Below, one piece after another: positions 801 to 63,874 of a stretch of DNA of 64,000 bases; within the stretch, counting starts at the first letter, position 1, and each line of letters opens with the position of its first letter. Source of the DNA: Octopus vulgaris (lineage: Eukaryota); NCBI GenBank assembly GCA_951406725.2, contig OX597830.1:4216001-4280000 (forward strand), written 5' to 3'. The notes below the pieces were generated by a model. The model was not told the DNA's origin and made no database searches. It was given only the letters and a program-made list of their open reading frames with translations. The position numbers and the translations under genes are program-made.

Positions 801-952
801 TTTAAAGTAGATCTTATTTTCTTTGTACATTAGCTTCTTTACAGAAAACAACAAACTCTTTTCAAAACTGAAACACTACTTACTAGTCAGGTAGGGTTTT
901 AGTAATTAATTATACTTTCATAATATACGAGTAAAAACAAAACTTACCCCGC

Positions 953-996
953 ATTTGCTGATGAGCCATATGATGGTGAAACTTGATGTTGCAAAT
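953..996 (+). ncRNA. Minimal type I hammerhead ribozyme motif in the PLE 3' region
   Basis: ATTTG-CTGATGA(958-964)-GCCA tatga TGGT (stem II)-GAAA(978-981)-C ttgat GT-T-GCAAAT. Stem I is ATTTG/CAAAT with a 1-nt register slip. Confidence 0.7.
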
Positions 997-1252
997 ATAA
1001 AATAACTACACAGCACTTGAAAGACAGGGCATTTTTGTTTTTCTTTATTCTTGCTTCCACTCACACATACACACACAAACTCTATGTTTATGTATGTGTG
1101 TGTGCATGTGTTTGTGTGTGCTGGAGAAAACCATTCCTGTCTATGCAATCAGAGGATGTAACATGATAGTGATGATGGTAAACAAGATATCAAAGATGAA
1201 ACATAGATACATGTGAAGATAGCTTTAATTAAAAATTGTGTGTGTATGTGTC

Positions 1253-11896: not shown

Positions 11897-13255
11897 ATAA
11901 TAATAATAATAATTGTGTACAATGCTCAGGTGCACTACAACTCATCTAAAGTGTATATATAATCAGGTGTAGTTTCGACGGATTTCGGGAAGCATGAGGG
12001 CCTTAAAGGATGCAGTGTCATGGCAGTCAACAACTGATGCAGGCAGTTTATTCCACGCTTCAGCAACCCTGAGCGTGAAAAAATGTTTCCAAAAGTCATG
12101 GGAGCTGTGCTGCTTTCTGACTTTGTAGGCATGTCCACGTGTGTTAGACACATGGAGATCAAAAAGGTGTTCAGTGTTGTTGTTGGTGAGGTGGTTGATA
12201 ACCTTGTGGGTGTTTACCAAGTCCGTCGCCAGACGCCGGAGCTTCAGTGAATCCATGCCCAGGGAAACAAGGCGCTCAGAATATGGTAGGTGTCTGATGG
12301 AGGGTATGCGTTTGGTTGCACGTCTCTGGACAGATTCCAGGAGGTCAATGTTCTGAGCAAGATAGGGATTCCAAACTGATGATGCGAATTCCAAGTGTGG
12401 TCGTACCATAGCTGCATACAGTTTTAAATAGATGGCTGGAGAGCGGCTAACAAAAGTCTTGCTGAGTGATGCCAAGACACCCTTGGCCTTCTTGACAATT
12501 TTAGAGATATGCTTTGTCCAACGCAAATCACTGCTGACAGTGATGCCTAGGTCACGCTCGCAAGAGGATTTCTTGATATCAGTGTTGTGGAGGGAGTATG
12601 TGGACGCAGGGTTTTTTCTCCCAAAATGCATGGTGGTACACTTGTCCACAGCCAGTTTCAGTTGCCAGTCTGTGATCCATTGCTGCATTGTGTCTAGGTC
12701 TGATTGTAGGAAAGAGTTGTAGACATCAGGATCAGTCCTCTTGATTTCAAGGTACAGCTTGATGTCGTCTGCATATTTCAATACTGTGGCATTCTTTAAA
12801 TTGGCATCTATGTCATTAATGTATGCCACAAACAGGAGGGGACCAAGGACAGATCCCTGTGGTACACCCGATGACATCTCATATGGTGTAGAGTGCTGTC
12901 CTAGAACTGTGACTACCTCCTTTCGGCTGAGGATGAAGGATTTCAACCAGTTAAAATGGTCATCCCCCACACCCATTGCAGAGAGTTTCACCATAAGCCT
13001 TTTGTGTGGCACAGAGTTGAAAGCCTTAGCAAAGTCAAGGTAGACAACATCCACCCATGAGCCACTGTCAGTGATCTGAGTAATGTCCTCAAGGAACTCG
13101 ACAAGCTGGTCACTGCAGCTGGAGTTAGGGACAAATCCATATTGTGAGGGTCGGATGAGACTGTGAGAGCTCCAGAAGTTCCAGAGTGTTTCTCTGACAC
13201 ACGATTCCATCAGTTTTGCAATACAGCTAGTGAGATTGACTGGGCGATAGTTGTT
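11897..13255 (-). mobile_element. 5'-truncated CR1-group LINE with (ATT)n tail
   Basis: RT ORF, a ~50-nt 3' UTR and a (TAA)n tract at 11897-11913 on +. The sequence becomes abruptly AT-rich beyond ~13255. Confidence 0.95.
11963..13255 (-). CDS. LINE ORF2 reverse transcriptase domain plus C-terminus (truncated, frame intact)
   Basis: Motifs NNYRPVNLTSCIAKLME (extends the track ORF upstream), QYGF, VYLDFAKAFNSVPH, GVPQGSVLGPLLF, YADD, ERDLG, RPHLEFASSVWNPY, LESVQRRATK, TRGH, RVAEAWNKLP. No stop codon in ~430 codons. Confidence 0.95.
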   Translation of the reverse strand, partial: NNYRPVNLTSCIAKLMESCVRETLWNFWSSHSLIRPSQYGFVPNSSCSDQLVEFLEDITQITDSGSWVDVVYLDFAKAFNSVPHKRLMVKLSAMGVGDDHFNWLKSFILSRKEVVTVLGQHSTPYEMSSGVPQGSVLGPLLFVAYINDIDANLKNATVLKYADDIKLYLEIKRTDPDVYNSFLQSDLDTMQQWITDWQLKLAVDKCTTMHFGRKNPASTYSLHNTDIKKSSCERDLGITVSSDLRWTKHISKIVKKAKGVLASLSKTFVSRSPAIYLKLYAAMVRPHLEFASSVWNPYLAQNIDLLESVQRRATKRIPSIRHLPYSERLVSLGMDSLKLRRLATDLVNTHKVINHLTNNNTEHLFDLHVSNTRGHAYKVRKQHSSHDFWKHFFTLRVAEAWNKLPASVVDCHDTASFKALMLPEIRRNYT

Positions 13256-13857
13256 AAAGTTTTAGACAAATTTCATATTTTGCTCTAAGAAGTCTAGATT
13301 GTAAAAGACTTTGCAAAAAGAAATCAACAGATAGAAACTATTAATAAATAATTTTAAAATCAATTTACAATAATATGTTTGATGAAAATATTTCTGAATT
13401 AGAACTTGTTGTTTTTTTTCGTTTTTTGGATGGCAGGAACACTTTCATTGACTATTGGAACGAGCAAAGAAAATTGTTTAACAAAATCATTAAACAAAAT
13501 TTGAGCATATTTATTTATATTTTAATTTAGCATACCAAAATAGGAGCTTAGTCCTATATATTAGACTATAAATATGCTGGCATTATGGAATTAATGTTGA
13601 TATGTCTTTCTGAAAGCACCGTAGTGGCAAGGTCAAAGGTTATGCTGGAATTCTAACTTGGGGTCAGACAAACTGCTTATTGAATTCTTGTTGAATTCTT
13701 ATTCAAATCAATTTCAAAAAGTGCCAAAGGTGAAATAATTTAGGAAACTCTTGTGATCTGCCATATGTAATTTGAGTTGAAATGATTTTACAAAATGAAA
13801 TACTTATTACGAAAATTGACTATTAAAAGTTATCTGAAATCAAATTGCAGTAACGAG

Positions 13858-37048: not shown

Positions 37049-37120
37049 ATATAACTGTGTGACTTTCTACCTCTGTCTTCCCTTCCTTTGGACTTGCCTC
37101 TGTTTCTGAAGAAGCATTTA

Positions 37121-37741
37121 GAGTCATCCTTTACCTTATTTCTGACCACTGACCAAGTACACGTCTGGAGACAGCCAAATGAAGCATTTGACTCAGACTG
37201 CCTTCTTCCAACTGTTAAACATGGAGGTGGGTCTGTGATGATCTGGGGGTCTATATCTTGGAAATCCGCCAGCCCAATGGTTTCCCTTCATGGCAGACTT
37301 AATAGCCAAGACTATTTAAGCATTTTATCTAGTCAAATTCATCCTTTGGTTGTGGAACTGTTTCTGGTGGGAAACACAATCTTTCAGGATGGTAATGCAC
37401 CAATTCACATAGCTAAAGTCGTTACTGAATGGCACAAGGAACATTCTAGTAAAGTTGAACATCTTATCTGGCCACCACAGTCTCCAGATCTCGATATTAT
37501 TGAATATTTATGGTGCATTTTAGAAAAACAAATAAGGAGTTGATATCCTCCACTATAAGAACTGGAGACTGTTTTAGCTGAAGAATGGACAAATATTCCT
37601 CTTTGGAAACAATTCAAACTTTGTACAAGTCCATAGCTCATAGAATTCAAGCTGTAATTAATGCCAAAGGTGGTCCTACCCTAAATTAAAATAAATTTGT
37701 TCGAAATTTTAAGGTGTTTCCATTATTTTTTCCAACCCCTG
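37121..37741 (+). mobile_element. Tc1-like DD37E transposon, 3' half with right TIR
   Basis: ESSFTLF..VHVWRQPNEAFDSDCLLPTVKHGGGSVMIWG...FQDGNAPIH...WPPQSPDLDIIEYLW...RIQAVINAKGGPT, with 37 residues between D and E. Ends ggtgtttccattattttttccaacccctg next to (TA)n. Stop and frameshifts follow residue ~140. Confidence 0.9.
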
Positions 37742-59300: not shown

Positions 59301-61709
59301 ACTACGATGATCTTTACATCAAAACTACATTTAACAGCATAAACATTTTGTCAAATAATCATTCTCCTCATCCACCCTTTTCTATCACAGTTTCCATTCT
59401 ACTCCAGGTTATTTAGTTTTGAAAAATCACACAAATATTTCATGTCTAATAGCATTAAAAGTTTTCAGTTCATAGTTTTCTCTAATATAATCTGGTGAAA
59501 TAATATAGAATGGTGTAATATTTTCACCCCAAAAAAAAAGCTGCCATCTTTTCTGCATGTGTATCCCAACAGTTGCTATTTTAGGTTTCAGTTGGTGCCA
59601 TTAGCTAATAGGAATGATAACATTGCAAAGCGCATTTAATTTGTGTACGGCTGATATGTTTATATAATAATTTTAGCCATGTTAATGTGTGTGGGTGCAT
59701 ATGTGTGTGTAATGTATAATTCAGTAGGTATAACTTAATACATCATGGAAATATATTTTATCATCTGTCTGTCTACATTTGCTTTCCAATCCCAACTTTT
59801 TGGTGTATACTCAGTGCCAAGCAGAGTGTTAAATGGCTGCCTTCAAGAAAAACAATTCACAGAGAGCAACCTTTGCTTCCAAACAGAGTCGCTCTGTTTA
59901 TACAATGGCTTCCTTCCTCTTCGAGGTTGGTAAATGGATTTGAATTGTCTTGGCATGCTGCCAATATCTAAGTGATTGGTCTGTACACATTGGATTACAA
60001 GACATTAACTACTTCTAGTAAATTAGATGTTGGCTCACATTTCATGAGACAAATATCTTTCTCTGTGATGTGCACTTCTAGTCGACATAGTCGTAGCCAC
60101 TTATAGGATCCAAAAATGTGGCATCAAAGAAACAGAATGTTAGTAAAGGCAGATGAATTCAATGACTGAATCCTAGAAATGATTAACTTGGTGTAGAAGA
60201 ACCAAAGAGGAAACGCATTCTTTGACTTTGGAAATTATTTCATTCAAATATTTATTATGTTGCTCACAGATTTTCTTTCATTAGCTTCTTTTTTGTAGCT
60301 TTACTCTTAGAAATGTCAGCACTGTGTGAAGCAATACCAGTGGTAACATTGCGGTATTGTTCATTGCGTTACCTAATTTACCAGCATGACGGAATAAAAA
60401 AATTGGTAGAGTGGCAGAGCAGAAGAATTGCTAAAGAAAATGTCTTGCAGTGTATATTTACATTTCTTTTACATTCCAAATTCATATCTTGTTAATCTTG
60501 ATTTTTTTTATTCTTTCAGAACAAACAAAATACAATACCAGTTACATACTGGTGTTGGCTTCACTCTATGACTGTGCTCTTATGTTAGAAATCAATGCTG
60601 TTTAATATAATTATTTCACAATAATTATTCCTATGCATGACTATGCTCTTGTAGCAGCAGTCACTGTTAGAACTCACTGTGCAGTATTCACTGAATTAAA
60701 TTTACAAACATTTCAACATTTGTTTCAAGTTATCTCATCTAAAAGTTAGTCTTAACTATATTCTTTTTTTTTTATTTATTCATTAATATTTACATTGAAT
60801 TAGTGCAGAAGATATGCTCAAATTATTGTTGTTTGGACGTCCATTTTCCCTTGACAGTATGGTTTGGATAACACACCAACAGGATATTAGGTTTTGATGC
60901 AAAGCTGAGGGAATTTCGCTTCCATATGAAAAAGAAACATATCTAACATCTAACTTATTGATGTCTACATTCATTCCAGTTAAAAGGTTTTATAATCAAG
61001 AAAGATCCTTTCCAAACTTTCCATTTCTCTCGACATTTTTGGATTTAATGTTTTTACAACAATTGCCTCTCTTTCTAAGAATATAAAAGAATGAATTTTC
61101 TGCAAATGTTATTAGCTTATTATCTTACCAATTATATTAAAGGTTATTTGTTGTGTTTCTTTGGAACAGATAAATCTATTTCAGCCAGAATAGTTCCTGC
61201 AATGTTACTTTCTTCACCTTGTTCTTCTAGTGAAAGAATAGATTTACTGTAAACATATTAATCAGCTTCAATGATCAGTATTATATTATGGAGTTTAACA
61301 GTTCACGGTGATGCAACTGGGTGCTGTGTGTTTTTATCAGTTTGCATATTTCTGTATAAGATATCAGAAAAACCCTATATAGATGGGTGACTCTGTACAA
61401 ACGGCAGCACTGTATTACTCAGATGCTGTGCAGATGAGAAGTTTGCTGTTAATAAGGTAAAAAATCAACAGAGATCATCTTTCAGTGATCTTTATGCATT
61501 AATGAGATTTTGAATGTTTGTAACGAGTAACTACAGGGAACATTTTCAAAGTTTCTGTGTGAAATACATAAAAGTATATAACACGGAAACTGTATATATA
61601 AAAGAAACCCTTTTTATTATATATACCCCTGCTTCTTGGATTACAGGTTACCAGCAGTGAAAGAGAGTTAAAGATTTTAATATTTGCTTATGAAACTTCT
61701 TTTGCTTCA

Positions 61710-61935
61710 TCTTTTATCTTTCCTTGTTTCAGTCATTAGACTCTGGCCACACTGGGGCACCACCTTGAAGAATTTTAGCTGTAAGAGTCAATCCAGTACT
61801 AATTTCTTTAAGCCTAAAATTTATTTTATTAGTCTCTTTTGCCAAATCACTAAGTTATGGGTATTTGAGTACACCAACTGCAGTTATCAAGTGGTAGTGA
61901 GGGAAAAAACACCCTCACACATGGACACACACACA
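61710..61935 (-). mobile_element. SINE family A, 3' half
   Basis: cttgtttcagtcattagactctggccacactggggcaccaccttgaag...ctaagttatgg. Confidence 0.75.
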
Positions 61936-61940
61936 CAAGA

Positions 61941-62804
61941 ATGCATACAAATATATACACAAAGAGAAGACTTATGGCAGAACCCCTTACATCCTAGAAA
62001 GGGCAGTTAAACCCAACCATGAAAAATAATTCTAAAGGTACACCGATAAAGCACTAGAATGAAAGGAATTATTATTTTTAGTTAATCCCAAACTCGAGTT
62101 TCCCTATAAATTAATTTGTACGTCAGTGGGATCGCTAAAACAATGCATAATTATATAGCAATAATACGTACCAAATAAACATGTGCAAGCTATATCCTTA
62201 TAACATTGTAGATTCAAATCAAGCATGCAGGTGCATTCACATAGCCAGGAGCAAATAATTTTTAAAAACTGCATACTATAAGCCTCAGAATTAGGAAGTT
62301 TTACTGTGTAAATCATAAGGATAAAAAAAATGAGAATAATTTATTACCAGTGATTTGCATGCATAATAAAAGTCATAAGACAACATATTTTCATATATAA
62401 TGGTGCATATAGATATAGTGAAGACCTGCAGCAGGACTCTTTACAGACTAGAAAGGGCAGTTAAACTGAATCATGAACAAATAATTCTAAAGGCACACCA
62501 ATAAAGCACTAGAATGAAAGGAATTATTATTTTAAACTCGAGTTTCCCTATTAATGAGCAAATAAATTAATTTGTCATCTGTAATAATAATTCCTTTCAT
62601 TCTAGTGCTTCGCCTTTAGAATTATGCTTTCGTGGTTGGGTTTAACTGGCCTTTCTAGCATGTAAGGAGTCCTGCCATAGGTCTTCTCATTGTGTATATA
62701 TCTATATGCACTCTTATATATGAGAATATGTTGTCTTATGGCTTTTATTATGCATGCGAACCACTGGTAATAAGTTATTCTAATTTTTCCCCTCATGATT
62801 TACA
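61941..62804. repeat. Composite direct (~450-bp period) plus inverted (~225-bp arms) repeat with two HHR-like motifs on the minus strand
   Basis: 61966-62118 repeats at 62420-62574; 62307-62534 is inverted at 62582-62804; GAAACTCGAGTT motifs lie at 62102-62091 and 62546-62535 (minus). Confidence 0.9.
62085..62132 (-). ncRNA. Hammerhead-like motif (type I, palindromic stem III)
   Basis: ATCCCA-CTGACG(T)A-caaattaatttatagg-GAAA-CTCGAG-T-T|TGGGAT. Stem I is a perfect 6 bp in exact register; stem II is weak. Confidence 0.6.
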
Positions 62805-62805
62805 G

Positions 62806-62881
<76 letters not shown>

Positions 62882-63102
62882 ATGTATAACCATTTTGCAA
62901 TTGGTTATTCTCCTTAATTCTAACCACACTGTTTAAGAAGTAAAATTAGTTAATTTTGGCTACAGAAAACTATTAGTATATACTATTTTATAGAACCATG
63001 CGTATAGGAAATTATATTGAGAAACATTCTGATAGAACCATACATACTATTTGATAGAAACAGCATTGAACGAATCAAAGAAAACTGTATTAAAGAACAT
63101 CT

Positions 63103-63222
63103 TGTCAACTTTGCTTTTCATCCTTTTGGAGTCGATAGAATAAGTACCAGTTGAGTACTGGGGTTGATGTAATCGATTTGGCCCTCCCCAGAATTTGCTG
63201 GCCTTCTGCCAAAATTTGAAAC
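63103..63222 (+). mobile_element. SINE family B, 3' part
   Basis: gtcaactttgcttttcatccttttggagtcgatagaataagtaccagttgagtactggggttgatgtaatcga...gccaaaatttgaaa. Confidence 0.85.
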
Positions 63223-63874
63223 CACTATGAATTCGTGGTCGAAGAGCCACTGGACAAATTCTTTATGCATGCAAGCCACAACATCTCCAGCCTGTGATTG
63301 AAACAGGATTATTGATTTACTCTGAAGAACGAAATTTCCACAAAGCAAATTCTTGAAAAATATTCATGCTAAAATATCTTTGAATCAAAAATATTAATAG
63401 TCAAATATAAAAGCAAATGTGTGCGTGTGGTAGGGTGGTGGCTGTAGGTGTGTGTAAAAACAGAGAATAGCTTTCTTCCTTCTTATAGGAATTTTCTCCC
63501 GATAAACTGTGATATGATAAGTTTTTCTAACATTTTGTGTTTGGAAAGAACTGATAACCAGAATGTTTTAGAAAAACATATTCTTAAACTGATGTGAGGT
63601 AGAATTAATAAAAAACATTTCTGCTCTATCTTGTGTATGTTTCTTTTAGTATATGTTTCTTTTAGTTTATCAATTAATATAACTTACTAAAGAGATAGGC
63701 AGGTTTGAGGAGGTGGGGAGGGAGGTGCCGGTGATGGTACCAATTCTATAAATTGCTTTGAAAAAGATATGCTGCGTAAATCTCTGTAGTAAACTCTATA
63801 GAACATAACTCTGTGGTGCTACTTGCTGTCCCCAAGCTCCCATTTCAATTCTGATACTGTAATAACAACAACTA

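Follow-up and report, generated by a model that had tools for sequence, protein, structure and literature searches.

A partly direct and partly inverted repeat near 62 kb of the 64-kb window (the whole stretch of DNA analysed here) is quite probably what is left of an ancient insertion, now dead, of a Penelope-like element (PLE) that was non-autonomous and whose pseudo-LTR carried a minimal type I hammerhead. This reading is based on the three-copy layout of the locus, the presence of a microsatellite at both ends, the absence of a coding frame and the variable position of the inversion breakpoints among its paralogs. The hammerheads at this locus are predicted to be inactive, and the locus itself, a dead repeat of a kind already described, is of little significance. 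The dispersed family to which it belongs is a modest lead, which would extend the PLE minimal hammerheads to a probable cephalopod, in a form with a long helix II.

The layout of the repeat copies (Table 1) agrees with the first-pass annotation in its two main elements. The direct repeat, reported there with a period of about 450 bp, relates 61953-62111 to 62407-62555 (80.6% over 160 columns), with an offset of 454-455 that becomes 444 across the motif; it extends over ~1.35 units, short of two full units, and has no further copies inside the window. The inverted repeat of about 225 bp likewise stands, with arms at 62307-62533 and 62583-62804 that are 87% alike (27 differences over 214 aligned columns, plus indels) and that would form a predicted hairpin of about -257 kcal/mol. 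Read in the hammerhead sense, the locus holds three copies of one segment, A, B and C. Of these, A and B abut head to head with their 5' ends at 62583, and the 3' ends of A and C, which face outwards, enter (TA)20(TG)15 and (CA)n, respectively. The palindrome AAACTCGAGTTT is found at 62090-62101 and again at 62534-62545, and the 444 nt between the predicted cuts have a GC content of 31%.

Table 1. Features of the repeat structure and its flanks, in window coordinates.
Feature	Position	Strand	Remarks
Left half of SINE-like repeat ending in (CA)n	61715..61934		left flank, likely insertion target; right half absent
Copy C, pseudo-LTR-like, +1 to about +154 from predicted cut	61937..62090	-	(GT)n follows the outer 3' end
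Hammerhead copy 1, decayed type I minimal-hammerhead-like motif	62076..62140	-	stem I 6-7 bp, CUGACG, GAAAC-UCGA-GUU
Non-coding spacer separating the direct copies	62141..62306	-	no long open frame in three frames
Copy B, pseudo-LTR-like, 3' of hammerhead 2; left inverted-repeat arm	62307..62534	-
Hammerhead copy 2 remnant at hairpin apex: helix II (inner 10-bp hairpin), GAAAC, palindromic helix III	62535..62583	-
Copy A, inverted, 5'-truncated (about +14 to +245); right inverted-repeat arm	62583..62804	+
(TA)20 (TG)15 microsatellite, right end of structure	62809..62879	.	target-site duplication not discernible

Evidence from outside the window came from public contigs of four runs (X1-X4), aligned to the window at 80% likeness. 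An assembly fold-back artefact was rejected, because the arms have diverged and the left junction between SINE and element is bridged by contigs from three runs (X1, X2 and X3; records 1, 10 and 17); the apex junction is spanned by no contig among the matches listed (32 of about 28,000 pieces). The repeat of the left flank, which we take to be a SINE, has blastn matches to 3 other window copies at 69-72% and a summed contig depth of up to 2.4 million (run X1). An earlier suggestion that the structure starts inside a SINE linker holds on the left side, where the left half of the SINE ends in (CA)n, but not on the right, where blastn found no match to the right half in 62850-63400, beyond the (TA)20(TG)15. 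Another short and abundant repeat, which has about 10 more window copies at 70-82% identity, is represented by a piece at 63102-63228.

Hammerhead copy 1 is more than a chance likeness, but it is a damaged hammerhead. On the minus strand its stem I (ATCCCA/TGGGAT) stands in exact register, with 6 Watson-Crick pairs and one G-U pair, and continues into a TTTTAG/CTAAAA extension, both as originally annotated; the core CTGACG (62126-62121) is followed by GAAAC-TCGA-GTT, and the predicted cut falls between 62091 and 62090. The same letters recur in an independent contig (run X2, record 11, 62046-62363, 0 differences). GAAAN, the palindromic helix III/loop and the NUH triplet are present in both window copies (GAAAC-UCGA-GUU), which upholds the proposed likeness of helix III to that of dimer-type animal hammerheads. 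A descriptor written after the motif had been seen (CTGANG, GAAA, helix III, NUH, stem I of at least 6 and a palindromic helix III/loop) was matched by 0/500 dinucleotide shuffles of the window, which supports the earlier view that the motif is hammerhead-derived; when the palindrome was omitted and stem I kept at >=6, 36/500 shuffles matched. The damage concerns the core and helix II. Position 9 is a U (A9 is lost), and the core reads CUGACG and then U in place of CUGANGA and an extra nucleotide; about 22 nt of the helix II region are lost relative to the paralogs, and the 19 nt from core to GAAA do not fold (0.0 kcal/mol). With a G at position 11.1, neither window copy can form the G10.1-C11.1 pair; G10.1 is left without a partner, and helix II is closed in neither of them.

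This open helix II would suit a non-ribozyme fold-back or MITE-like repeat whose hammerhead likeness arose by chance, as would two further results: Rfam gave no match at gathering score across the window (and, in 61500-63500, 12 matches at E<=10, none from a hammerhead family), and a loose hammerhead core pattern has 4 other matches in the window. We regard such an origin as very improbable, since no shuffle reached the features of copy 1, the paralogs retain CUGA-GA while position 7 varies, copies differ in their inversion breakpoints and the structure as a whole extends beyond the inverted repeat.

Copy 2 had been read as a hammerhead with a mutated core, so that the locus would hold two hammerheads whose cores are mutated at different positions. 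This has to be abandoned, as copy 2 has no core at all and both strands of its stem I are missing. It contains no CUGA (the U4 position is A) and was missed by a hammerhead scan that tolerated a single change in the core. It has just 3 stem I pairs in register, compared to the full stem of copy 1; whatever pairs beyond these belongs to the base of the inverted repeat and is displaced by 2 nt; the original caveat that stem I of copy 2 may simply stem from the inversion was thus justified. The 'CAGATGA' formerly taken as the core forms one side, the 5' strand, of a long helix II and lies 5-6 nt downstream of where the core should be, a reassignment made because paralog junctions put the family core upstream of it; folding pairs its GAUGA within a 10-bp hairpin (z -3.3). 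The inversion breakpoint at 62583 probably took away the core and the 5' strand of stem I, and the 3' strand disappeared from copy B with a deletion of 11 nt.

Excision of a unit-length RNA of about 445 nt, as initially envisaged for this locus, is not supported, because copy 2 is devoid of the core and the stem I strands and in copy 1 A9 is gone and helix II is open. An active locus, at which dimerisation of the motifs through the palindrome would set free a circularising RNA of 444 nt, could rely on two intact GAAAC-UCGA-GUU halves 444 nt apart and on the perfect stem I of copy 1. It is nevertheless scarcely conceivable, given that copy 2 is without CUGA, has its GAUGA paired in helix II and keeps so few stem I pairs in register, that the helix II region of copy 1 is unfolded in addition to the loss of A9, and that half of the unit would be locked in the long hairpin. 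In the anole PLE, moreover, RNA-seq reads neither began nor ended at the hammerhead site, and the hammerhead needs protein and is dispensable for insertion in vitro (PMC11167929), which makes a free unit-length RNA less likely still. A transcript running across the locus would form a long imperfect RNA hairpin rather than yield a unit-length RNA. Contigs of run X2, which we guess to be RNA, cover 61832-62530 with the SINE flank included and therefore show no unit-length RNA. At 62403-62493 the same run has two 91-nt contigs, one identical and one with 6 differences that may reflect an allele, a paralog or editing; a reading of the latter contig, together with the missing X2 cover of arm A, as silence or editing was rejected.

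The claim of a multi-copy family, in turn, is borne out by the public contigs, which show dispersed, diverged relatives. Several contigs that are 80-90% alike cover 62121-62407 and cross the inverted-arm end (records 4-7, 19-23 and 25-32), and paralog contigs also cross the spacer (records 5, 7, 22, 31 and 32); as they run from the downstream segment via the spacer to the next motif, the period and its unit are a feature of the family. Joints from 62573, 62576, 62579 and 62583 back to 62121-62123 yield stem I and core of copy 1 followed by the hairpin of copy 2, as judged from contig fragments whose shorter side measures about 34-39 nt. In 3/4 of the paralog junctions among the matches listed the core is CUGANGA + A + G, with C, C or A at the free position 7, and hence shows the PLE minimal-hammerhead core of CUGANGA, one nucleotide and G10.1; the fourth junction among these matches has changes at G8 and 10.1. 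The span from core to GAAA is about 39 nt in the family, and judging from the indels a complete unit would measure about 480 nt rather than 445. Joints that go back 454-463 were considered as proof of tandem arrays and rejected, since such joints are to be expected when, as in the window, copy 1 alone retains the core and copy 2 alone retains helix II. Paralogs also have head-to-head joints elsewhere (62409 to 62652 in X1 and X4; 62011 to 62645 in X1, X3 and X4), a shorter tandem joint (62154 to 62266) and forms that are without the AT-rich 60-nt segment (62011/62016 to 62536). Both the joint from 62154 to 62266 and record 23 of X3 point to 62266, 41 nt past 62307 (the equivalent of the arm A end), and 62266-62306 may, at best, be an optional PLE 'tail'.

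With intact cores in the paralogs and a period shared across the family, the family could be a true non-LTR retrozyme, in which head-to-tail units of ~480 nt, situated elsewhere and with intact hammerheads, give linear and circular monomer RNAs and of which the present locus is a decayed, rearranged offspring. The unit size and the GC content of 31% fit animal retrozymes, described as 150-450 bp with <50% GC (PMC7229834) or as 51-972 bp (bioRxiv 10.64898/2026.07.22.740005), and the non-coding, low-GC unit of a few hundred bases is a retrozyme trait. We nevertheless consider this unlikely. The listed paralog contigs, 80-90% alike, have a depth about equal to that of the locus's own contigs (39-55 in X1), bearing in mind that depth cannot be equated with copy number, and the matches listed include no array that is young and homogeneous. 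Variant sites of X1 located 3' of the motif occur in 20-53 contigs each, compared to 4-10 for sites in the spacer (among the matches listed), as 5' truncation predicts. The motif belongs to the minimal type known from PLEs, inversions in head-to-head arrangement are characteristic of these elements, and only 1/9 of the predicted retrozyme dimers of Xenopus was cleaved in vitro (10.64898/2026.07.22.740005). The same preprint defines a retrozyme by at least two successive units, each carrying a complete type I hammerhead, and the locus falls outside this definition because neither of its hammerhead copies is complete. What holds of the retrozyme-like interpretation in the first-pass annotation is the hammerhead origin of the motif, the multi-copy family and the palindromic helix III; the tandem-plus-inverted layout is better explained as a PLE insertion.

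For the PLE insertion we propose that a transcript with two pseudo-LTRs would have been reverse-transcribed in trans by the RT/GIY-YIG protein of an autonomous PLE, with integration at a presumably AT-rich or microsatellite site. A second, 5'-truncated cDNA may have been joined in the opposite direction at 62583, severing the core of the upstream hammerhead, and subsequent deletions and point changes would have ruined the remaining hammerhead parts. The ancestral hammerheads, on this proposal, would have been weak processing sites aided by dimer formation or by protein. Jukes-Cantor (JC) distances within the locus are 0.11 for A-C, 0.14-0.16 for A-B and 0.18 for B-C, and copy B holds 12/23 of the private substitutions (p 0.048, post hoc), an indication that B and C were already divergent in the donor and that A was copied from the C-like end. 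On the time scale quoted in PMC13282606 (JC 0.065 = 18 My), the insertion would very roughly date back ~15 My, provided that the host is an octopus, as its SINEs suggest.

A frame for RT plus GIY-YIG, as expected of an autonomous PLE, is absent from the locus: the three frames of the unit are closed, and none of the 39 stop-to-stop frames searched in 58.5-64 kb matches Pfam (39 of 42 frames, the three microsatellite frames being left out). A 37-residue acidic frame at 61147-61257 (-) looked exon-like by eye; compared with 1.84 billion proteins it gave 1 weak match, a bacterial adhesin without tblastn match to the window, and a host gene is not established. The octopus PLE Naiad was considered as a partner and rejected, as the window motifs were not found and the 3' end of Naiad_Obim looks unrelated by eye. 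In the available part of the PLE consensus supplement of PMC8557442 (wrapped lines, one strand), three window motifs were absent or present only in an unrelated GC-rich record.

Other mobile sequences and hammerhead-like motifs were seen further away. The window holds a 432-residue open frame with an RVT_1 domain (E 1e-35) at 11963-13261 (-), LINE-like and apparently little decayed, and a fragment of a DDE_3 (Tc1/mariner-type) transposase at 37055-37543 (+). A second, unrelated decayed type I hammerhead-like motif lies at 950-997 (+), with CTGATGA at 958, a 4-bp helix II and GAAAC; its stem I is slipped by one base, its folding energy is unremarkable and it is not similar to the 62-kb element. 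A metagenome scan with hammerhead patterns gave 0 matches for one pattern and 1 match for another (L001, 4001-4049). The latter is due to chance, being inside a small bacterial gene and having no similarity to the window; that gene sits between two peptidase-like and two ABC-transporter-like frames (labels assigned by eye).

The one unusual trait of the family is its helix II of ~39 nt between core and GAAA, and a hammerhead of this form is missed by Rfam and by descriptors with a 7-17-nt spacer. The family links PLE pseudo-LTRs to retrozyme-sized units outside vertebrates, beyond the scope of the 2026 preprint (10.64898/2026.07.22.740005) as far as its available text goes. A more ambitious scenario would be an undescribed cephalopod retrozyme-like family, moved by PLEs, in which intact members with the long helix II cut tandem transcripts into circles of ~480 nt and in which the head-to-head hairpins left by this movement serve as dsRNA substrates for editing; we rate it as improbable. 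A literature search, with Repbase and Dfam outside its range, found no description of a cephalopod hammerhead family among the papers listed, and the family may already be catalogued in these two databases. For O. vulgaris, a paper on its repeats counts 190 Penelope-like families, which make up 6.83% of the genome; the word 'ribozyme' is absent from the available parts of that paper's main text and supplement.

The closest relatives of the motif are the minimal type I hammerheads of metazoan PLEs described by Cervera and de la Pena (2014), which consist of a U-rich stretch, CUGANGAH, a G...C pair, GAAAN, a palindrome, NUH and an AU-rich stretch, and which are weak and act as dimers (PMC4209133). 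The family has in common with them the U-rich 5' flank, CUGANGA with one further nucleotide, G10.1, GAAAC, the palindromic helix III/loop, the GUU triplet, the AU-rich 3' flank and the occurrence of mostly decayed, dispersed copies; U17 is found in 20 of the 44 rows considered in Fig. S3 of the same paper. It differs in its helix II, with ~39 nt from core to GAAA and a 10-bp inner hairpin compared to 3-8 bp in those rows, in its stem I of 6-7 bp and, for the window copies, in the lack of C11.1, whereas positions 10.1 and 11.1 are paired in all 44 of these rows.

At the level of the insertion, the locus resembles Penelope/Neptune-type elements, for which two direct pseudo-LTRs and an adjacent inverted one, mostly head to head, have been described, together with the movement in trans of sequences bounded by pseudo-LTRs (PMC3846280), and further a partial tandem with an inverted 5'-truncated copy, microsatellite targets without a clear target-site duplication (TSD) and an optional tail of 30-40 bp (PMC8557442). 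The locus shows the same arrangement, namely a partial pseudo-LTR tandem with an adjacent, inverted and 5'-truncated copy in head-to-head orientation; its insert is non-coding and bounded by pseudo-LTRs, with (CA)n on the left, (TA)20(TG)15 on the right and no TSD seen. It differs from autonomous Penelope/Neptune elements in the lack of an RT/GIY-YIG frame, and its two outer ends differ by about 90 nt, compared to the usual 30-40 nt of a PLE tail. With animal non-LTR retrozymes (PMC7229834; 10.64898/2026.07.22.740005) it shares the non-coding, low-GC unit, the type I hammerhead and the palindromic loop III; it departs from them in having only ~1.35 units, no two complete hammerheads and an inverted arm. 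The two ideas are related, because the 2026 preprint proposes that the retrozymes of animals derive from PLE pseudo-LTRs.
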